Shown: piece by piece, positions 3,744 to 19,653 of the stretch
How the letters are laid out: the number at the start of each line of letters is the position of its first letter
Numbering within the stretch: position 1 is the stretch's first letter
From: Dehalococcoidia bacterium
Lineage (GTDB): Bacteria > Chloroflexota > Dehalococcoidia > DSTF01 > JACRBR01
Assembly: GCA_021462855.1 (NCBI GenBank)
Contig: JAJTXQ010000021.1
Coordinates: 1,430 to 65,429, forward strand
Length of the DNA stretch: 64,000 nt
Direction of reading: 5' to 3'
Notes under the pieces: model-generated
What the model saw: only the letters and a program-made list of their open reading frames with translations
Told to the model about the DNA's origin: nothing
Databases searched by the model: none
Made by a program: the position numbers and the translations under genes

Positions 3744-5192
3744 CTAGACCAGCGGGCGGGCGGTGGGTGCGATCGGGACGGGGAGCTGCGTCTCGCCGGC
3801 GAGGTAGCGGTCGACGCCGGCGGCGCAGGCGCGGCCTTCGGCGATCGCCCAGACGATCAGGCTCTGGCCACGGCCCATGTCGCCGCACGTGAACACGCCC
3901 GGCACGCTCGTCATGAACGCATCGTCGCGCGCGACGTTGCCGCGCGGGTCGAGCGCCACGCCGAGCTCCTCGATCATCCCCGCGCGCTCCGGCCCGACGA
4001 AGCCCATCGCCAGGAACACGAGCTCGCACGGCAACTCGAACTCGGTGCCCTCGACCTTCTCGAAGCGCCCGGCCTTCATCTCGACGCGGTGCGCGACGAG
4101 CGCGCGCACGTTGCCGTGCTCGTCGCCCGCGAAGCGCTCCGTGTTCACGCTGAACAGGCGCTCGCCGCCCTCCTCGTGCGCGGACGACACGCGGAAGATG
4201 TTCGGCCAAGTCGGCCACGGATTCGCATCGGCGCGCGCATCCGGCGGGCGCGGCAGGATCTCGAACTGGTGCACCGACCGGGCGCCTTGCCGGTGCGCCG
4301 TGCCGAGGCAGTCCGCGCCTGTATCGCCGCCGCCGATGATCACCACGCGCTTGCCAGCGGCCGTGATCGTCGGCTCGGCGAGGTCGCCCTGCTGCACGCG
4401 GTTACCGATCGGCAGGTACTCCATCGCCTGATGGATGCCGCCCAGCTCGCGACCGGGGATCGGCAGGTCGCGCGCCATCGTCGCGCCGCCTGCGAGCACC
4501 GTCGCATCGAACTCACGCAGCTCCGCGACGGGCACGTTCACGCCTACGTGCGCGTTGACGCGGAACTCGGTGCCTTCCGCGCGCATCTGATCCAGGCGCC
4601 GGTCCAGGAACCGCTTCTCCATCTTGAATTCCGGGATGCCGTAGCGGAGCAGCCCGCCAACGCGGTCATCGCGCTCGAAGACGACGACGTCGTGGCCGGC
4701 GCGCGTGAGTTGCTGCGCCGCCGCGAGACCTGCCGGGCCGGAGCCGACGACGGCCACGCGCTTGCCCGTCTTCACCGTCGGCGGGATCGGCGCGACCCAG
4801 CCCTCGGCCCACGCGCGCTCGATGATCTCGTACTCGACCTGCTTGATCGTCACGGGGTCGGCGTTGATCCCGAGCACGCATGCGCTCTCGCAGGGCGCGG
4901 GACAGAGCCTTCCCGTGAAGTCGGGGAAGTTGTTGGTCGCGTGCAGCCGCTCGATCGCCTCGCGCCAGTGGTTGCGGTACACCAGGTCGTTCCAGTCGGG
5001 GATGATGTTGCCGAGCGGGCAGCCGTTGTTGCAGAACGGAATGCCGCAGTCCATGCAGCGGCCCGCTTGCTCCGTCAGCGTCTGCCGGTCGAACGGCTCG
5101 TAGACCTCGTGCCAGTCGTTGAGCCGCACATCGACCGGCCGGCGGTTTGGCGTGATGCGCTTCCACCTGAGAAAGCCCGTCGCCTCACCCAT
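3744..5192 (-). CDS. gltD: Glutamate synthase (NADPH) small subunit
   Basis: Fe-S cysteine cluster ([14 protein letters not shown]). FAD/NAD Rossmann motifs ([24 protein letters not shown]). Overlaps gltB by 8 nt. Confidence 0.9.
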
Positions 5193-8100
5193 GAGCCGAC
5201 GCCATCACGCGCTTCAGCGTCTCGTCCTCCGGCAGGCCGGCCTTCGCCGCTTCCGCCATGACGTTGAGCACGCGCTTGTAGTCCTCGGGCATGACTTTGC
5301 GGAAGGACTGCACCTCGCTCTCCCACTGCGAAAGGAGCAGGTCGGCGACATCCGAGCCGGTGAGCTCGCGGTGCCGCTCGACGGTCGCGCGAAGCCATTC
5401 GCGGTCCGTGTCGTTCAGGGGCTCGAGCTCGACCATCTGGTAGTTCACGAGTTGCGGGAACCGGTTGTCCGGGTCGTACACGTAGGCGACGCCGCCCGAC
5501 ATGCCGGCCGCGAAGTTCCGTCCCGTCGGGCCAAGCACGACGACGCGCCCTCCCGTCATGTACTCGCACCCATGGTCGCCGACTCCCTCGGCGACGGCGA
5601 CGGCGCCGGAATTGCGGACGGCGAAGCGCTCGCCGACCGTGCCGCGCAGGTATGCCTCGCCGCCCGTCGCGCCGTACAGCGCAACGTTGCCGGCGATGAT
5701 GTTCTCCTCCGCCGGGAAGAGCGCATCGCGGTCCGGGTGGATCACGACGATGCCGCCCGACAGCCCCTTCGCCGTGTAGTCGTTCGCGTCGCCTTCGAGC
5801 CGCAGCGTGATGCCCCTGGGCAGGAACGCGCCGAAGCTCTGGCCGGCGGAGCCCCGCAGGTGGACCTTGATCGTGTTGTCCGGCAGGCCCGCGCCGCCCC
5901 ACCGCTTCGTCAACTCCGAGCCGAGCATCGTCCCGACGGTGCGGTTCGTGTTGCGCACGCACGTCTCGATCTCGACCGCGGTGCCGTCGCGAAGCGCCGG
6001 CGCCGCCTTCTCGATCAGGTGCACGTCGAGCGCGCGGTCAAGGCCGTGGTCCTGGCCGCGCGTGCAGTAGCGGGCCTGCCCCTCGTAGGGGTTCTGCGCC
6101 TCGGCGAGGATCGGCGTGAGGTCGAGGCCGTCCGCCTTCCAGTGGTCGATCGCCGCGCGCGTGTCGAGCACCTCGGTGTGGCCGATCGCCTCGGCGATCG
6201 AGCGGAAGCCGAGCGCCGCGAGGTACTCGCGCACCTCCTGCGCGACGAACTCGAAGAAGTTGACGACGTACTCAGGCTTGCCCGAGAAGCGCTTGCGCAG
6301 CTCCGGGTTCTGCGTTGCGACGCCGACCGGGCACGTATCGAGGTGGCACACGCGCATCATCACGCAGCCGCTGACGACGAGCGGCGCCGTCCCGAAGCCG
6401 AACTCCTCGGCCCCGAGCAGCGCGCCGATGATCACGTCGCGCCCGGTCTTGAGCTGGCCGTCGACCTGCACGACGATGCGGTCGCGCAGCCCATTGCGGA
6501 GCAGCGTCTGCTGCGTCTCCGCGAGCCCGAGCTCCCACGGCGCGCCGGCGTGCTTGATCGAGGTCAGCGGCGACGCCCCGGTGCCACCATCGTGACCGGA
6601 GATCAGCACGACGTCGCTGTGCGCTTTCGCCACGCCGGCCGCGACCGTCCCCACGCCCACCTGCGCGACGAGCTTGACATGCACCCGCGCCGCCGGGTTC
6701 GAGTTCTTCAGATCGTGGATCAGCTGCTTGATGTCCTCGATCGAATAGATGTCGTGATGCGGCGGCGGGCTGATCAGGCCGACGCCCGGCGTGCTGTAGC
6801 GTGTCCTGGCGATCCACGGGTAGACCTTGTGACCCGGCAGCTGCCCGCCCTCGCCCGGCTTCGCGCCCTGCGCCATCTTGATCTGCAGGTCGTCGGCGTT
6901 CACCAGGTACTCCGAAGTCACGCCGAAGCGGCCGGACGCCACCTGCTTCACCGCCGAGCGGCGCAGGTCGCCGTTGGGGTCGCGCTGGTAGCGGTCGGCG
7001 TCCTCGCCGCCCTCCCCGGTGTTCGACTTCGCGCCCAGACGGTTCATGGCGATGGCCAGCGTCTCGTGCACTTCCTTCGAGATGGAGCCGTAGGACATCG
7101 CGCCGGTGGCGAACCGCTTGACGATTGACGTCACCGGCTCGACCTCATCGATCGGCACCGGCGGGCGCGCGCCGTCGCGGAAGGTGAACATGCCGCGCAG
7201 GGTTGCCAGCTGCTTCGACTGGTCATCGACCAGCTGCGTGTACTCCTTGTAGATGTCGTACCGGCCGGCGCGCGTCGCGTGTTGCAGCTTGTACACCGTG
7301 TCGGGGTTGAACAGGTGGTACTCGCCCTCCCGGCGCCACTGGTACTCGCCGCCGAGCTCGAGGTCGCGGTGCGCGAGCTCCGCCGGGCGCGGCGCGTATG
7401 CCCGGCGGTGCCGGCGCGCGACTTCCTCGGCGATCTGGCCAAGCCCGACGCCGCCAATGCGCGACACCGTGCCCGTGAAGTACTCGTCGACGAGCTCCTG
7501 GTGCAGGCCGATCGCCTCGAACACCTGCGCCGCGCGGTACGACGCGACGGTCGAGATGCCCATCTTGGACATCACCTTCAGCACACCCTTGCCGGCCGCC
7601 TTCACGTAGTTCTTGATCGCGACATGCGGGTCCATGTCGCCGAGGCCATACAGCCGCTGCGTGACGAGGTCCTCGATCGATTCGAAGGCCAGGTACGGGT
7701 TGATCGCGCCGGCGCCGTAGCCGACGAGCAGCGCCATGTGGTGCACCTCGCGCGCATCGCCCGTCTCCAGCAGCAGCCCGACGTGCGTGCGCCGGCCTTC
7801 GCGGATCAGGTGATGATGCACCGCCGATACCAGCAGCAACGACGGGATCGGCGCCAGCTCCGGCCCCGACATCCGGTCCGACAGCACGATGATGCGCGCG
7901 CCCTCGTCGATTGCCTGCACCGCCTCGGCGCGCACGCGGTCGAGCGCCTCGCGCAGCGCCTCGCCGCCGCCCGCCACGCGGTAAAAGCCGGAGATCACGC
8001 GCGCGGCGAACTCCGGGTGCTCTCCGTCGTCGTTGATGTGGATGAGCTTCGCCAGCTCGTCGTTGTCGAGGATCGGGAACGGCAGCGCGACCTGGTGACA

Positions 8101-13364: not shown

Positions 13365-14183
13365 ATGGAACATGACGATGTGATGCGCGGCCGCCTGCTC
13401 AGCCGCCGCGAACTGCTGGCAATCATGGGCGCGGCCGGACTGGCGTTGCTCGCCGGCTGCTCCGGCGACGGCGGCAACGATGGCGCCGCGCCGCCCACCC
13501 GCGCGGACAGCGCCGCGACGGCCGCGCTGAGCGCGGATCCCACGCGCCCGGCCGCCGCCGCGCAGGCGACCGTACCCGCGTGCATCGTCAGCCCCGAGAT
13601 GATGGAGGGGCCGTTCTTCGTCGATGAGAAGCTGCTCCGCTCCGACATCCGCTCCGACCCATCGGGCGGCGCCACGCGCGAGGGCGCGCCGCTCGGCCTG
13701 GTGCTCGTCGTGTCGGGCGTCGGCGGCGACGGCGCCTGCGCGCCGATCGAGCGCGCCGTCGTCGACATCTGGCAGTGCGACGCCGACGGCGTCTACTCCG
13801 ACGTCGACGATCCGGCGGGCGGCAGCACGAAGGGCCAGCGCTGGCTGCGCGGCCACCAGGTGACCGACGCATCGGGCACGGTGCGGTTCACGACGGTCTA
13901 CCCGGGGTGGTATCCCGGCCGGGCCACGCACATTCATTTCAAGGTGCGCACGGACCCGGACGCCGCGTCCGGCGCGGAGTTCACGTCCCAGCTGTTCTTC
14001 GATGACGCGCTGAGCGACGCCGTGCACAACAGCGGCGGCGCCTACGCGCCGCGCGGCGCCGCTGGCCGCGTCCGTAACGCCGATGACGGCATCTACCAGG
14101 GTGGCGGCGACCAGCTGCTGCTCGACGCGCGCCCGGCGGCCAGCGGCTACGCCGCCACATTCCACATCGGCATGCTGGTGTGA
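13365..14183 (+). CDS. Intradiol ring-cleavage dioxygenase family protein, Tat-signal lipoprotein
   Basis: GGGGAGGAG RBS. Twin-arginine plus lipobox (SRRELLAIMGAAGLALLAGCSG). Intradiol dioxygenase core motifs (VDIWQCDADGVYS, THIHFKV). Confidence 0.7.
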   Translation: MEHDDVMRGRLLSRRELLAIMGAAGLALLAGCSGDGGNDGAAPPTRADSAATAALSADPTRPAAAAQATVPACIVSPEMMEGPFFVDEKLLRSDIRSDPSGGATREGAPLGLVLVVSGVGGDGACAPIERAVVDIWQCDADGVYSDVDDPAGGSTKGQRWLRGHQVTDASGTVRFTTVYPGWYPGRATHIHFKVRTDPDAASGAEFTSQLFFDDALSDAVHNSGGAYAPRGAAGRVRNADDGIYQGGGDQLLLDARPAASGYAATFHIGMLV

Positions 14184-14229
14184 CACGCGGCGCCGATTCG
14201 TGCCGATCGGCCCCTTGTGCCTGAAGATC

Positions 14230-14254
14230 GATAGCGGACAATACGTCCGCTATC
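14230..14254. promoter_or_regulatory. Perfect inverted repeat GATAGCGGAC-N5-GTCCGCTATC. Candidate operator of the HTH-PBP regulator/modABC operon.
   Basis: Perfect 10-bp arms with a 5-nt spacer, 17 nt upstream of a GAGGG Shine-Dalgarno and the GTG start of the regulator. Confidence 0.5.
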
Positions 14255-14271
14255 AGATTGAGGGCGACCTG

Positions 14272-15399
14272 GTGGGCCGTCGCACGACTGCGCCGAAACT
14301 CGAAAACCACGTCAAGGAGGCGCGGCTCAACGCGGGCCTCTCGCAACAGGAGCTCGCCGACCGGACGGGCCTGACCCGCCAGGCCGTGAACTCGATCGAG
14401 GCGGGACGCTACCTGCCGAATACCGCGGTTTCACTCCAGCTCGCCCGCGCCCTCGACACGACGGTGGAACGCCTCTTCACGCTCGACGCGCCCACCGGCG
14501 TGACGCCGTCCGTCGCGTTGCCGGACGGCGTGCGACACGGCGACCGCGTCGTCGTGGGGCGCGTCGGCGCGCGGCTCGTCGCCCACCCCGTCGCCGCGCC
14601 GGCCACGTCGGACGGCTTCGCGAGCGCCGATGGCGTCGTCGTCGATGATGCCAACATCCGCCTGCTCGTGCCCGCCGCGCAGGTGGAAAAGACCGCGTTC
14701 CTCGTGGGGTGCGATCCGAGCCTCGAGATGCTGGCGACGCTCGTTACGCGGCGGGCGCGCGGAAGCGCCCGTCTCCTGTGGGTGCCCGGGTCGAGCAAAG
14801 ACGCCATCGATGCGCTCGCGAACGCGTCCGCGCACATCGGCGGAATCCACCTGCGCGAAGAGGCGAGCGGCGAGTTCAACGTCCCGCAGGCGACGCGGGC
14901 GCTCGAGCGGTCAGGCGGCATGCTGATCGCCTACGCGGACTGGGAACAGGGGTTCGTGCTGCGCAGCGGCAATCCCCGCAAGCTCAGCGGCGCGGACAGC
15001 CTCGCCGGGCGCGGCGTCCGCATCGTGAACCGCGAGCCGGGCGCCGGGAGCCGTCTGCTGCTGGACAGCATGCTGAGCGCCGCCTGCATCGACCCTGCGC
15101 GCATCGCCGGCTACGACCACGTCGTGCGCAGCCACATGGCGGTAGCGCGCGCCGTGGCCGGCGGGACCGCCGACACGGGCATCGCCATCCGCGCCGTCGC
15201 GTCGGCGCTCGAGCTCGACTTCCTGCCGCTCATGCATGCCAGGTTCGACCTGGTCATCCCGGCGACACATCTCGACCATCCGGCGATCGACCTGCTGCTC
15301 GAGGTCTTGCAGGCTGCCGCGCTGCGCGCCGAGCTCGGCGCTCTGCCCGGGTACGGCACGGCGGAGACGGGCGCGGTGCGCGCCACGGTTGCGGTATGA
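14272..15399 (+). CDS. XRE-family HTH fused to a PBP-like (ModA/TOBE-related, COG1910-type) domain. Putative molybdate/tungstate-responsive regulator.
   Basis: GTG start with GAGGG 6 nt upstream. HTH (LSQQELADRTGLTRQAVNSIEAGRYLPN) followed by a roughly 300-aa periplasmic-binding-protein-like domain. modA follows immediately. Confidence 0.65.
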   Translation: MGRRTTAPKLENHVKEARLNAGLSQQELADRTGLTRQAVNSIEAGRYLPNTAVSLQLARALDTTVERLFTLDAPTGVTPSVALPDGVRHGDRVVVGRVGARLVAHPVAAPATSDGFASADGVVVDDANIRLLVPAAQVEKTAFLVGCDPSLEMLATLVTRRARGSARLLWVPGSSKDAIDALANASAHIGGIHLREEASGEFNVPQATRALERSGGMLIAYADWEQGFVLRSGNPRKLSGADSLAGRGVRIVNREPGAGSRLLLDSMLSAACIDPARIAGYDHVVRSHMAVARAVAGGTADTGIAIRAVASALELDFLPLMHARFDLVIPATHLDHPAIDLLLEVLQAAALRAELGALPGYGTAETGAVRATVAV

Positions 15400-15432
15400 G
15401 ACGTCAATCATGTCACTGACAAGGAGCACGCA

Positions 15433-16305
15433 ATGAATCTATCGGTACGGTCGCTTCGCAACGCCGCGGCCGGCTTGCTCCTGGTGGCGGCCATGGCGCT
15501 GGCCGCGGCGTGCCGCGGCGACGGCGACTCGCCGTCGCCCACGTCGACGACCGCCGCCCCGACCGCCGCATCAGCCGCGGCCCGGCTCGACGGCGAGCTG
15601 ACGGTGTTCGCGGCCGCGTCGCTCACGGCGGCGTTCAAGGACGTTGGCGCGGCGTTCGAGGACGCGAACTCCGGCGTGGACGTGACATTCAACTTCGCCG
15701 GCAGCCCCGCGCTGCGCACGCAGGTGGAGGAAGGCGCGCCGGCCGATGTCCTGGCGCTGGCCGACAACAAGAACATGCAGGCGGCGCTCGACAAGAAACT
15801 CGTCGCCCAAGCCTGGCGCACGTTCGCGCGCAACCGGCTCGTGATCGCCGTCCCGTCGGCGAACCCCGGCGAGATTTCCGCGCCGGTCGACCTCGCCAAC
15901 GGCGGACTGAAGCTGGTGCTGGCGCAGGAGGACGTGCCGGTGGGCAACTACGCCCGCGAGTCGCTCGGCAACATGGAAGCCGATGCCACGTTCGGCGCCG
16001 GCTTCCGCGACCGCGTGCTGGCCAACGTCGTGTCGAACGAGCCAAACGTCAAGGCGGTCGTGACGAAGGTCCAGCTCGGCGAGGCCGACGCCGGCATCGT
16101 CTACGCCACGGACATCACCGGAGACCTCAAGGGCACGGTGACGGCGATCCCGATTCCGGATGAGTTCAACGTGGTCGCGACGTATCCTGTTTCCGTCGTG
16201 TCGGACGCGAAGGAGCCGGAAATCGCCGCCGCCTTCATCGACTTCCTGTTGTCTGCCGCGGGTCAGGCCATCCTTGAAGAGCATGGATTCACCGGAGCGG
16301 AGTAA
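15433..16305 (+). CDS. modA: Molybdate ABC transporter substrate-binding lipoprotein
   Basis: AAGGAG RBS and a lipoprotein signal (LAAACRG). ModA-family motifs (FAAASLT, NFAGS, GEADAGIVY). Confidence 0.85.
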   Translation: MNLSVRSLRNAAAGLLLVAAMALAAACRGDGDSPSPTSTTAAPTAASAAARLDGELTVFAAASLTAAFKDVGAAFEDANSGVDVTFNFAGSPALRTQVEEGAPADVLALADNKNMQAALDKKLVAQAWRTFARNRLVIAVPSANPGEISAPVDLANGGLKLVLAQEDVPVGNYARESLGNMEADATFGAGFRDRVLANVVSNEPNVKAVVTKVQLGEADAGIVYATDITGDLKGTVTAIPIPDEFNVVATYPVSVVSDAKEPEIAAAFIDFLLSAAGQAILEEHGFTGAE

Positions 16306-17145
16306 ATGAGCGCCGGCGCGGTGTCCCGGCGAGGACGCGCGCGCGTGGTCGGGCTGGGCTGGGCGCTCGGCCCGCCCGCGCTGCTCGGCGTACTGTTCCT
16401 CGGCCTGCCGATCGCCGCGCTCGCATGGCGCGCCGGGCGCACCGGCGCCCTCGCCGAACACGCAACGTCGGCGTTCGTGCTCGACGCGCTCCGCCTGAGC
16501 GCGATCACCAGCACGTTCACGCTGCTGATCGCGGTGATCGTCGGGACGCCGCTCGCGTACCTGCTCGCGCGCTACCGCTTTCCCGGCAAGTGGCTCATCG
16601 ACGTGCTCATCGACCTGCCGATCGTGCTCCCGCCGACGGTTGCCGGCGTCGCGCTGCTCGTGACGCTCGGGCGCCGCGGGATCGTCGGTGAGCAGCTCGA
16701 CGCCGCCGGCATCGATATCGCCTTTACGACGACGGCGGTGGTGCTGGCGCAGACGTTCGTCGCGGCGCCCTTCTATATCCGCACCGCGAAGGCCGGCTTC
16801 GAGAGCGTGGACCCGTCACACGAGCGGCTCGCATGGACGCTGGGCGCATCACCGCTGCGCGCGTTCCGCGAGGTGACGCTGCCGCTCGCGTGGCCTTCGT
16901 TGCTCGCCGGCGGCATCCTCTGCTGGGCGCGCGCGCTGAGCGAGCTCGGCGCAACGCTGATCTTCGCTGGCAGCTTCCAGGGTCGCACCCAGACGATGCC
17001 GCTGGCGATCGTCGGCGCGTTCGAGTCCGGCAAGTCGGTCGAAGTGCCGATCGCGCTGTCCGTGATCCTCGTGTGCGCCGCGGCGGCGATGCTGGTGTTG
17101 CTGCGGCTGGTGACGGGCGGCGTCTCCCGGGACGCGCATGTTTAG
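16306..17145 (+). CDS. modB: Molybdate ABC transporter permease
   Basis: Starts 1 nt after the modA stop. Six TM segments. CysTW/ModB EAA-like loop (ARALSELGATLIFAG). Confidence 0.85.
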   Translation: MSAGAVSRRGRARVVGLGWALGPPALLGVLFLGLPIAALAWRAGRTGALAEHATSAFVLDALRLSAITSTFTLLIAVIVGTPLAYLLARYRFPGKWLIDVLIDLPIVLPPTVAGVALLVTLGRRGIVGEQLDAAGIDIAFTTTAVVLAQTFVAAPFYIRTAKAGFESVDPSHERLAWTLGASPLRAFREVTLPLAWPSLLAGGILCWARALSELGATLIFAGSFQGRTQTMPLAIVGAFESGKSVEVPIALSVILVCAAAAMLVLLRLVTGGVSRDAHV

Positions 17146-18238
17146 CGTTGACTTCACGCTTCGCCTTGGCGACTTCACACTCGCGCCCACTTTCAGCGGC
17201 GGCGACGAGCTGATCGTCCTGTGCGGGCCCTCCGGCTCGGGCAAGTCGCTGACGCTGCAGTCGGTCGCGGGCATCATGCGCCCCGATGAGGGCCGGATCG
17301 AAGTCGCCGGGCGCGCGCTCCTCGATCGCGCCGCCGGCATCGATGTGCCGGTGCAGGCGCGTCGCGTCGGATACGTGCCGCAGGGACAGACGATGTTCCC
17401 GCACATGACCGCGGCGCAGAACGTGGCGTTCGCCGTGCGCCCGGAGGACCGCGACCGCCGCCGCGCCATCGTCGCCGACCTGCTCGAGAAGACCGGGCTC
17501 ACGGGACTCGAGGACCGGCGGCCGCGGCAGCTGTCCGGCGGTCAGCAGCAACGTGTCGCGCTCGCCCGCGCGCTGGCGGCCGACCCGCGCATCCTGCTGC
17601 TCGACGAGCCGTTCAGCGCGCTCGACACGGCGCTCCACGGCGAACTGCGCGAGCTCATCGTGTCGGTGCAGGGCGCACGCGGCATCCCCGTGCTGATCGT
17701 CACGCACGACCTGGGCGATGCGTTCAGCCTCGGCGACCGGCTGATCGTCTTCGAGGCCGGGCGCGTGCTGCAGCAGGGCTCGCGCGAGGACATCTTCTTC
17801 CGCCCGGCGACGCGGCGCGTGGCGGAGCTCGTCGGCGCGCGCAACATCCTGCCGATGACGGTGCGCGGCATCGGCGACGGCGTCGTCGCGCTCGACTGGG
17901 CCGGCCGCGAGATCGCCGCCGCCATCTACGCCACGCACGACGCGCCGCCCGTCGCGACAGGCCAGCACGTCGAAGCTTCGATCCGGCCGACGCAGATCAT
18001 GATCCGAAGGCAGGGCGACACCTACGAAGGCCGCCGCAACGTCTTCCTCGCCACGATCGCCAGCGAGATCATGGGCGCCGAGTTCTATCGCCTGTTCGTG
18101 CGCATCGATGGCTCGCCCGCCGCGCACGACCTGGAGATCGAGCTGCCGGCCTACACGTACTTCCGGCTGGGGCTCGACCGGCACAAGGAGATCGAGCTCT
18201 CGATCCGGCCCGAGGCCGTGCACATCATGCACGGCTGA
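17138..18238 (+). CDS. modC: Molybdate ABC transporter ATP-binding protein with C-terminal TOBE domain
   Basis: Walker A (GPSGSGKS), signature (LSGGQQQRVALARA), Walker B (LLLDEPFSALD). C-terminal molybdate-binding TOBE-like region. Confidence 0.85.
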   Translation: MFSVDFTLRLGDFTLAPTFSGGDELIVLCGPSGSGKSLTLQSVAGIMRPDEGRIEVAGRALLDRAAGIDVPVQARRVGYVPQGQTMFPHMTAAQNVAFAVRPEDRDRRRAIVADLLEKTGLTGLEDRRPRQLSGGQQQRVALARALAADPRILLLDEPFSALDTALHGELRELIVSVQGARGIPVLIVTHDLGDAFSLGDRLIVFEAGRVLQQGSREDIFFRPATRRVAELVGARNILPMTVRGIGDGVVALDWAGREIAAAIYATHDAPPVATGQHVEASIRPTQIMIRRQGDTYEGRRNVFLATIASEIMGAEFYRLFVRIDGSPAAHDLEIELPAYTYFRLGLDRHKEIELSIRPEAVHIMHG

Positions 18239-18240
18239 GG

Positions 18241-19653
18241 TCAGCGCGGGTCGATCGGCGCGACCGGCGGCAAGCGCTCCTCGATCGCGCGCGCCGCGGC
18301 GAGGCACGTGTCCTCCCGGTAGCGCCGGCCGATGATCTGCACGCCCTGCGGCAGGCCGCCGGCGAGCCCGGCCGGCATGGCGACGGACGGCAGCCCGAGC
18401 AGGTTCACCGTAACGGTCAGCCGCAGCAACTTCATCCCCGCGCCGAACTCGGCGCGCCCGGCGATGTCGAAGCCGGCGGGAAACGGCTGTTGCGTGCCGA
18501 CCGGCCCGAGCGCCAGCGGATAGCGCTCGGCGAACACGCTCCAGGCGCGCGCGATGCTGTTGCGCGTCTCCCACGCCTGCACGTAACCGGCAAGGTCGAG
18601 CGCGGGCACTGTCTCGAACGCAAGCTGCAGGAACGCCTTCGCGCCATCCGACGCGAGCGGTTCGAGCAGCGGGTAGGTCACCGCCCGCAGCTCGGTCACC
18701 ACCAGCGTCGAGTAGAGGTCGCGGGCCTCGGCGACCATCGGAAAGTCGACCTCCTCGACGGCGTAGCCCGCGTCGGCGAGCGCGCCGGCGGCCCGCCGCA
18801 CGCCGGCCGCCACGTCCGGGTCGACGCCTTCGCCCGCCGGATCGGCGCACACCGCGACACGCACGGGCGCATCGAGCGGCGGGCCTTCGAGCTGCGCCGG
18901 CGTCCACCACGGGTCACGCGCGTCGGCCGCGGTCATGATCGCGAACGCCGTTGCCAGGTCGTCCGCACGCCGCGCCATCGGGCCATGCACGGAAAAGAGC
19001 TGCGCCGTCATCGTGCCGTCCTCGGGCGGGATCGCGGCGAACCGCGGGACGCGTCCGAGCGTCGGCCGCAGCGACATGACGCCGCACGCCTGCGCCGGCC
19101 AGCGCAGCGAGCCGCCGTAGTCGTTGCCCATGCCGAGCGCGGACATGCCGCAGGCGAGCGCGGCGGCATCGCCGCCCGATGATCCTCCGGGCGTGCGCGC
19201 GGCGTCCCACGGGTTGAGCGTGGCGCCGCGCAGCGCGTTATCGGTGTGGAAACGCAGGCCCACGTCAGGCATGTTCGTACGGCCGATGACGATAGCGCCG
19301 GCACCCTTGAGCTTCGCGATGTGCGGCGCGTCGGTCGCCGGCACGGCGTCCTTCAGCACGACGAGCCCGTTCGTCGTCGCACTCCCGGCGACGTCGATGT
19401 TCTCCTTGACCGTCATCGGCACGCCCAGCAGCGGGCCGGCGTCGCCGCCCGCGGCGAGCGCGCGGTCCGCCGCGTCGGCCGCCGCGATGGCGTCGTCTGC
19501 CAGCGTGACCGTCACCGCGTTGACGCGCGGGTTCACCTCCGCGATCCGCGCAAGGTGCGCCTCGACCACCTCGCGCGCCGAGATCGCCCTCGCGCGAACC
19601 GCCGCGGCGAGCTGCCCCGCGCCCATGCGCCACGGCGCTCCGTCGTATGCCAT
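18241..19653 (-). CDS. Amidase (amidase-signature family, GatA-like)
   Basis: AAGGAG RBS 8 nt upstream of the ATG (MAYDGAPW). AS-family GGSSGG motif plus the catalytic Ser-cisSer-Lys context. The longer upstream ORF extension is spurious. Confidence 0.8.
   Translation of the reverse strand: MAYDGAPWRMGAGQLAAAVRARAISAREVVEAHLARIAEVNPRVNAVTVTLADDAIAAADAADRALAAGGDAGPLLGVPMTVKENIDVAGSATTNGLVVLKDAVPATDAPHIAKLKGAGAIVIGRTNMPDVGLRFHTDNALRGATLNPWDAARTPGGSSGGDAAALACGMSALGMGNDYGGSLRWPAQACGVMSLRPTLGRVPRFAAIPPEDGTMTAQLFSVHGPMARRADDLATAFAIMTAADARDPWWTPAQLEGPPLDAPVRVAVCADPAGEGVDPDVAAGVRRAAGALADAGYAVEEVDFPMVAEARDLYSTLVVTELRAVTYPLLEPLASDGAKAFLQLAFETVPALDLAGYVQAWETRNSIARAWSVFAERYPLALGPVGTQQPFPAGFDIAGRAEFGAGMKLLRLTVTVNLLGLPSVAMPAGLAGGLPQGVQIIGRRYREDTCLAAARAIEERLPPVAPIDPR

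Follow-up and report, generated by a model that had tools for sequence, protein, structure and literature searches.

We describe here a putative regulator of molybdate uptake and its candidate operator, found in a stretch of 64,000 nucleotides (nt) from a Dehalococcoidia bacterium of the phylum Chloroflexota (contig JAJTXQ010000021.1 of GenBank assembly GCA_021462855.1); the whole of this stretch is referred to as the window, and positions in it are counted from its first letter. A gene for a protein with an XRE-type helix-turn-helix (HTH) and a binding-protein-like sensor domain lies there directly ahead of the molybdate transporter genes modA and modB and a modC-like gene, and is itself preceded by a perfect inverted repeat. 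The coordinates of these features are collected in Table 1.

Table 1. Features of the regulator-modABC locus in the window (aa, amino acids)
Feature	Position	Strand	Remarks
Conserved block GTGCCGATCGGCCCC	14200..14214	+	directly 5' of the -35-like hexamer
Putative -35-like hexamer TTGTGC	14215..14220	+	orthologues have TTGCAC, TTGCGC, TTGACC in the same columns
Operator (candidate), perfect inverted repeat GATAGCGGAC-aatac-GTCCGCTATC	14230..14254	.	10-bp arms, N5 spacer
Putative -10-like hexamer GACAAT, inside the operator	14237..14242	+	GACnnT in the alignment
Shine-Dalgarno-like GAGGG	14260..14264	+	7 nt ahead of GTG; orthologues have GGAGG in the same place
Regulator gene, 375 aa	14272..15399	+	GTG start; open reading frame and Pfam
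Beta-rich linker domain of the regulator (aa ~77-131)	14500..14664	+	confident AlphaFold2 prediction
modA, molybdate ABC substrate-binding lipoprotein, lipobox LAAAC	15433..16305	+	TIGR01256, SBP_bac_11
modB, permease	16306..17145	+	TIGR01581, TIGR02141
ModC-like ABC ATPase	17138..18238	+	ABC_tran, E 8.3e-32

A first-pass annotation of this DNA had described the regulator as an XRE-type HTH fused to a periplasmic-binding-protein-like domain, and the Pfam matches of the 375-aa product bear this out. HTH_3, the XRE helix-turn-helix, matches at aa 14-66 (positions 14311-14469; expectation value, E, 5.9e-14), with further matches to HTH_31 (E 8.7e-11) and HTH_19, and PBP_like (PF12727) matches at aa 161-347 (positions 14752-15312; E 9.2e-58); HTH_17 was absent among the Pfam matches. 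The AlphaFold2 model, with a mean predicted local distance difference test score (pLDDT) of 92.5, begins with the HTH, continues through a small beta-rich linker domain and ends in a type II binding fold of two lobes that occupies approximately aa 141-375. The closest relatives of the HTH in the PDB are the CylR2-/PbsX-type XRE repressors, which bind inverted repeats as dimers. Since the protein has no signal peptide and its sensor is fused to an HTH, it should be cytoplasmic. No Pfam family was found for the linker when aa 70-143 were searched, and NCBIfam holds no model for the whole protein; nonetheless, aa 92-370 match the C-terminal residues 358-644 of PRK14498, the model of the MoeA-PBP fusions (E 1e-53), with a whole-protein score of 182 bits that falls far under the cutoff of 534 bits. 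The linker carries a conserved R92, F116, and A119-D motif, and the PRK14498 match, which begins at residue 92, extends over it as well. It may act as a dimerisation or signal-relay module.

The choice of start codon matters for what follows. The public gene call of the Joint Genome Institute (JGI), P0001, begins at the GTG at 14200 and is 399 aa long, a reading that would make the operator, -10 box and Shine-Dalgarno (SD) sequence part of the coding region. This call was rejected as too long, since it is contradicted by 30 homologues that begin with a conserved N-terminal MGRR corresponding to the GTG at 14272. With the start at 14272, the palindrome therefore sits in an 88-nt intergenic region.

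The modA product scored 160 bits against TIGR01256 (cutoff 62.5; E 6.7e-47) and matched SBP_bac_11 with E 5.5e-53, and the modB product scored 240.6 bits against TIGR01581 (cutoff 210.3) and 199.3 bits against TIGR02141 (cutoff 182.6), while the models for modC and WtpC matched the ATPase under their cutoffs. The regulator does head modABC on the same strand, as had been annotated: it is separated from modA by 33 nt, modA from modB by 0 nt, and modB and the ATPase gene overlap by 8 nt. Because the gaps are so short, because the stretch from 14000 to 18600 showed no terminator-like site, and because the regulator-modA spacer of the orthologues contains an SD and nothing more, the regulator, modA, modB and modC look like one four-gene operon. 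A mini-palindrome in the regulator-modA spacer, TGTCA-c-TGACA at 15411-15421, abuts the SD of modA and resembles the GAC/GTC core of the operator; it was considered as a second promoter or operator and rejected, as the repeat is unconserved in six orthologous spacers. The annotation had also stated that no ModE-type regulator is present, and this holds as a statement about the window alone, where no ModE or Mop/TOBE protein was detected in the 64 kb by tblastn, for which two Mop proteins and the ModE of E. coli served as queries. A paralogue of the regulator was likewise not detectable in the 64-kb window.

The inverted repeat is indeed perfect, although one distance given for it needs correction: the 17 nt that had been quoted to the SD lead from the end of the palindrome to the start codon, and the SD-like GAGGG is only 5 nt away. 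No further copy of the operator was found in the 64-kb window, even when the pattern was made degenerate and 2-3 mismatches were tolerated. The palindrome was not accepted as significant by itself, since such repeats are not rare in this GC-rich window (70% GC); there are 13 perfect inverted repeats with 10-bp arms and a spacer of 0-10 nt (approximately 9 distinct sites), compared with approximately 6 in Markov-1 random sequence. It is the intergenic position of the repeat, together with its conservation in orthologous loci, that makes it meaningful. Two of the other perfect 10-bp inverted repeats are found inside coding sequence, one in the regulator gene at 14503-14531 (ACGCCGTCCG-N9-CGGACGGCGT) and one in modA at 15517-15539 (GGCGACGGCG-act-CGCCGTCGCC); both are GC-rich and are probably due to chance.

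Conservation was assessed in a comparison set of 80 loci from GTDB species genomes and 10 metagenomic contigs carrying the closest homologues (individual related loci are cited below, where needed, by L numbers). The closest orthologue, with 69% protein identity, has GATAGCGGAC-actat-GTCCGCTATC at this place, i.e., the two arms are identical and the spacer and flanks are unrelated. When 11 upstream regions were aligned, covering 51-100% protein identity, the columns GATA, GAC, G.C and ATC were invariant and the flanks diverged, so that the search for the palindrome in relatives, which the first-pass annotation had proposed, found it at the same position in all 11 orthologous loci. The pattern derived from them, GATA-N3-GAC-N5-GnC-N4-ATC, stands consistently 14-21 nt ahead of the start codon, and the family operator consensus can be written as GATA-N3-GAC-N5-GTC-N3-(T/A)ATC. 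Both strands of the fetched loci, 698 kb in total, were then scanned with the pattern. All strict matches lay 14-29 nt upstream of a regulator start codon, and all 28 looser matches, including 10 loci outside the set from which the pattern was derived, lay 15-55 nt upstream of one; there were zero matches elsewhere in the 698 kb. Of 88 loci, 39 carry the core GAC-N4/5-GTC in the 100 nt ahead of the regulator gene, where 0.06 were expected per search window. The operator tracks the regulator gene irrespective of which gene lies upstream. A variant was seen in Nitrospirales (L064, a metagenome-assembled genome, at 5183-6721; also L074 and L079), where the regulator is followed by a gene for an Alginate_exp-type outer-membrane channel and then by modB- and modC-like genes, and the operator has a 4-nt spacer (ATACATGAC-atat-GTCATTTAT). 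This arrangement points to a diderm form of the uptake system under this type of control.

The same alignment points to a promoter that overlaps the operator. Columns G66, A67 and C68 are invariant in the 11 loci and T71 is nearly so, giving GACnnT, which can be read as a -10-like hexamer; the putative -35-like hexamer is spaced 16 nt from it in the window and 16-17 nt in the orthologues. The transcript would start within the right arm of the palindrome, as the SD follows at the usual distance, and the operator would therefore cover the -10 box. A different layout is found in loci of the Thermomicrobiales type, including that of the cultured Thermomicrobium roseum, in which the left arm would itself constitute the -35 element, TTGAC, and the right arm lies in the spacer ahead of a putative -10 box, TACACT or TACTAT. 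Both layouts, one over the -10 and one over the -35, would be typical of repression by occlusion, and an operator over the -10 box fits autorepression of the four-gene operon.

The link to molybdenum comes largely from the company that the family keeps. In the 80 loci, modA is immediately downstream of the regulator in 34 and divergent or upstream of it in 8 more, and modA or modB is found no more than 4 kb away in 53. Genes for XdhC and for CoxS/M-like and MobA-like proteins are also among the neighbours of related regulators. In at least 9 related loci, the regulator adjoins a gene for a single-domain Mop/TOBE protein of 67-68 aa, often divergent from the same intergenic region (L085 3630-3833, L001, L002, L090, and L087 3700-3906, all five divergent and on the minus strand; L088 3031-3264; L080, L053, L058), and a functional Mop-regulator partnership is conceivable. 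The family itself is large: an exhaustive HMMER search returned 6770, 2479 and 627 homologue clusters at 50% identity with E of at most 1e-3, 1e-10 and 1e-30, respectively, and approximately 139 of the best 150 clusters cover both domains. Members occur in Chloroflexota, Deinococcus, Acidobacteriota, Nitrospirota, Planctomycetota, Myxococcota and cyanobacteria; the JGI annotation names many of them "molybdate-binding protein/XRE regulator", and their RefSeq label is "substrate-binding domain-containing protein". A PBP_like protein in different surroundings was seen on plasmid pRCB133 of Rhodobacter capsulatus SB1003 (L095, 3761-4687), where split genes for an HTH_17 protein (61 aa) and a PBP_like protein (229 aa) lie directly upstream of arsR, an ArsJ-associated GAPDH gene and arsJ, a hint that the signal for some PF12727 sensors is arsenate or a different oxyanion instead of molybdenum (Mo) or tungsten (W).

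Among the cyanobacterial members is a homologue of 377 aa, with HTH_3 and PBP_like domains, on a plasmid of Nostoc sp. C057 that is reported to carry vnf genes (PMC6645180). It is 34% identical to the window regulator over 97% of the query (E 2e-66) and is encoded directly upstream of a nifH-type gene and nifEN. In Anabaena (Nostoc) variabilis ATCC 29413, VnfR1 and VnfR2 are described as Mo-dependent repressors of the vanadium (V-) nitrogenase genes (PMC4284476, PMC8461463, PMC12327845), and vnfR2 is placed directly upstream of vnfH-vnfEN (PMC4284476, PMC8461463). By its synteny with this published layout, the Nostoc C057 protein is taken to be VnfR2-like. The molybdenum connection of the window regulator is thus strengthened both by the synteny with mod, Mop and Mo-enzyme genes and by its homology, along the full length, with the Nostoc C057 protein at the vnfR2 position.

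The sensor fold was examined for a candidate ligand pocket. Foldseek returned only generic type II binding proteins, including ModA, TupA and binders of sulfate, phosphate, taurine and phosphonate; the best target-normalised template-modelling (TM) scores, 0.73-0.75, were those of a YvgL/ModA-like protein (7tav) and the effector domain of NtcB. The anion-binding positions S12, S39, A125, V152 and Y170 of E. coli ModA were then compared with the regulator. In a weak profile alignment, the family-invariant S175 corresponds to S39 of ModA, the G257 loop to A125, and H288 to V152. Conserved residues at these positions would suit an oxyanion pocket in the usual location, and the PBP_like domain may bind an oxyanion. 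Matches of the sensor domain to PDB sequences were confined to weak ones to FHA domains, which were dismissed as spurious.

In our view, the protein is likely to be a Mo/W-responsive autorepressor of the regulator-modABC operon, acting through the operator at 14230-14254 with the oxyanion as co-repressor. It would be a one-component repressor of the VnfR type, in which an XRE HTH and a beta linker are joined to a cytoplasmic PBP_like 'Venus flytrap' sensor for molybdate or tungstate. A dimer or higher oligomer would bind the 25-bp operator over the -10 of the single promoter; with the oxyanion plentiful, the liganded protein would sit on the operator and shut off both its own gene and the transporter, and with molybdate scarce the operon would be derepressed. 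The autoregulated repressor that the first-pass annotation had proposed is thereby supported, at the level of sequence, by the domains, by the position at the head of the mod operon, and by an operator-like conserved site over the putative -10.

Several observations weigh against this interpretation. A stringent scan for the sigma-70 consensus called no promoter at the site. No solved structure that is related in sequence to the PF12727 sensor was detectable in the PDB, and the profile alignment with ModA is weak (hhalign probability 68%): in it, Y170 of ModA falls on the non-conserved I306 of the regulator, and the equivalent of S12, which is S150, was aligned by eye. In 27 of the 80 loci, the family member is not next to mod genes, and ligand specificity may vary across the PBP_like superfamily, given the ars-adjacent protein of pRCB133. 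Finally, the in-vitro DNA binding of VnfR1 and of TaoR, a regulator with a PBP_like sensor from Desulfovibrio, is reported to be unchanged by tungstate or molybdate (PMC12327845), so that, for the family, a direct effect of the ligand on DNA affinity is a hypothesis. No ligand-binding measurement for PF12727 domains turned up in the accessible literature.

These observations lend themselves to other explanations, of which the strongest is that the sensor reads a different signal, namely sulfate, phosphate, arsenate, vanadate, an intermediate of the molybdenum cofactor, or a partner such as Mop, and that this signal may govern the operon. The Foldseek neighbours other than ModA and TupA, the ars genes next to the pRCB133 protein and the metal-independent DNA binding of TaoR and VnfR1 would all suit it, as would the Mop genes adjoining many orthologues and the reported fusion of the same sensor domain to MoeA (PMC10102598). 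Against it, the downstream transporter scores above the equivalog cutoffs for both modA and modB, the synteny with mod and Mop genes and with accessory genes of Mo enzymes holds consistently from phylum to phylum, and VnfR is described as Mo-dependent in vivo (PMC4284476). On balance, a signal other than molybdate or tungstate appears unlikely.

The metal-insensitive DNA binding of the relatives could also mean that the regulator is permanently on its operator and that oxyanion occupancy is turned into repression without a switch in DNA affinity. Possible routes include ligand-driven oligomerisation via the beta linker, contact with RNA polymerase, and partnership with Mop. In the same reading, a pocket containing Asp, His and Arg, unlike those of ModA or Mop, might discriminate between Mo and W. 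By analogy with TaoR and VnfR1, such a mechanism is conceivable, and we assign it a low probability. If it were true, this clade, with its self-contained operon and sharply defined operator, would offer a good model for an unsolved sensing mechanism.

Still less probable is that the protein is an activator or a dual regulator of modABC, perhaps activating when unliganded. The ligand-independent DNA binding reported for TaoR (PMC12327845) is compatible with activation, and the promoter hexamers in the window are weak, with 4/6 consensus matches each. However, an operator over the -10 here, and over the -35 and spacer in distant orthologues, has the classical geometry of occlusion, and the VnfR relatives are described as repressors (PMC4284476).

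It is very improbable that the palindrome is a hairpin, serving for instance to terminate or attenuate transcription of the dioxygenase-like gene upstream, or a chance product of high GC content. In favour of such a reading, the RNA does fold strongly (-28.8 kcal/mol, z -5.7), the dioxygenase-like gene shares the strand and has its end at 14183, and perfect 10-bp repeats are common in the window. Against it, no U-tract follows the palindrome, the orthologues retain just 5-8 of the 10 possible arm pairs, covariation between the arms does not exceed that of shuffles, most loci have unpaired bases at the central arm positions, and the site follows the regulator whatever gene lies upstream. As base identity and not pairing is conserved, a protein-binding DNA site is indicated, and an RNA hairpin or terminator was rejected.

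Two other features lie upstream. The gene at 13365-14183 (+ strand) has a 272-aa product that resembles intradiol dioxygenases (Dioxygenase_C, E 1.9e-12) and carries a twin-arginine-like motif, RRELL, at its N-terminus; the gene has no connection with Mo uptake and is not kept beside the orthologous regulators. The conserved block at 14200-14214, GTGCCGATCGGCCCC, contains the palindrome GCCG-AT-CGGC at 14202-14211 and is kept as G(T)GCC(A/G)TC(C/T)GGCC in 6-8 of the 11 orthologous upstream regions, where the neighbouring sequence diverges; the orthologue L084 has GCCA-TC-TGGC at the block, so that the dyad is preserved. The block may serve as a further site for protein binding, or may be left over from the divergent Mop promoter that occurs in relatives.

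If a Mo/W-responsive autorepressor is indeed what the locus encodes, then many Chloroflexota, together with Deinococcus, Acidobacteriota, Nitrospirota and others, probably regulate the uptake of molybdate with no need of ModE, by means of a one-component regulator that contains a transporter-type binding fold. For the specialist, these results confirm expectations and do not overturn them. The concrete operator consensus, GATA-N3-GAC-N5-GTC-N3-TATC, together with the two geometries of promoter overlap, would aid regulon prediction in uncultured lineages, and the locus could serve structural and ligand-binding work on PF12727.

The annotation had placed the protein in a poorly characterised family, which is an overstatement, since there is published work on VnfR1/2 and on TaoR, which shares the sensor, and since the JGI annotation already treats such proteins as molybdate-binding XRE regulators. 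VnfR1 and VnfR2 are reported to have an N-terminal HTH, and vnfR expression is itself Mo-repressed (PMC4284476, PMC12327845); the HTH, the Mo-dependent repression and the repression of its own gene all fit the model proposed for the window regulator. The two differ in their targets, which for VnfR are the vnf nitrogenase genes and probably vup, whereas the window regulator is the first gene of a modABC operon. They also differ in the N-lobe motif, which is GCDPS in the window regulator and GCAPV in the Nostoc C057 protein, and an operator of the window type was not evident upstream of the vnfR-like gene of Nostoc C057.

TaoR is described as having a PBP_like (PF12727/COG1910) sensor with an HTH_17 DNA-binding domain (PMC11980592, PMC10102598) and as regulating the aor and tup genes, with DNA binding that does not depend on a ligand (PMC12327845). 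It has in common with the window regulator the sensor module and the theme of W/Mo transport-gene control, the latter by synteny in the window; however, the HTH_17 of TaoR, a MerR/excisionase-like domain, contrasts with the XRE-type HTH_3 of the window protein, and because the DNA-binding domains differ, the two operators are expected to be unrelated. A protein of TaoR architecture (HTH_17 and PBP_like) on a Clostridium butyricum megaplasmid (L094, 3782-4762) is approximately 30% identical to the window regulator over the sensor domain. Its gene lies between a divergent modABC and an anfO/nifH/P-II/nitrogenase cluster, an arrangement that parallels the vnfR-vnfH layout in Nostoc.

The MoeA-PBP_like fusions (PRK14498, e.g., DVU0951) share the linker and the sensor with the window regulator, which has a DNA-binding domain in place of the MoeA domain. 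MoeA is described as handling molybdate for cofactor insertion (PMC10102598), and, judged from sequence and from what that source reports, linker plus sensor constitutes a module common to both, with ties to the metabolism of the molybdenum/tungsten cofactor (PMC10102598). With ModE of E. coli, described as a repressor that responds to molybdate and has a palindromic operator overlapping the promoter of modABC (PMC4284476), the proposed regulator shares its logic and no relationship in sequence or domains: ModE combines a winged-HTH N-terminus with two Mop/TOBE domains, whereas the window regulator has a PBP-fold sensor and no TOBE or ModE-type domain, and E. coli modE stands outside the modABC operon, whereas the window gene heads its own. 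The DNA- and molybdate-binding domains of VnfR1/2 have likewise been described as distinct from those of ModE (PMC4284476, PMC12327845). The window protein is thus an uncharacterised new member of the VnfR-type family, with a sensor that it has in common with TaoR and a clearly defined operator.

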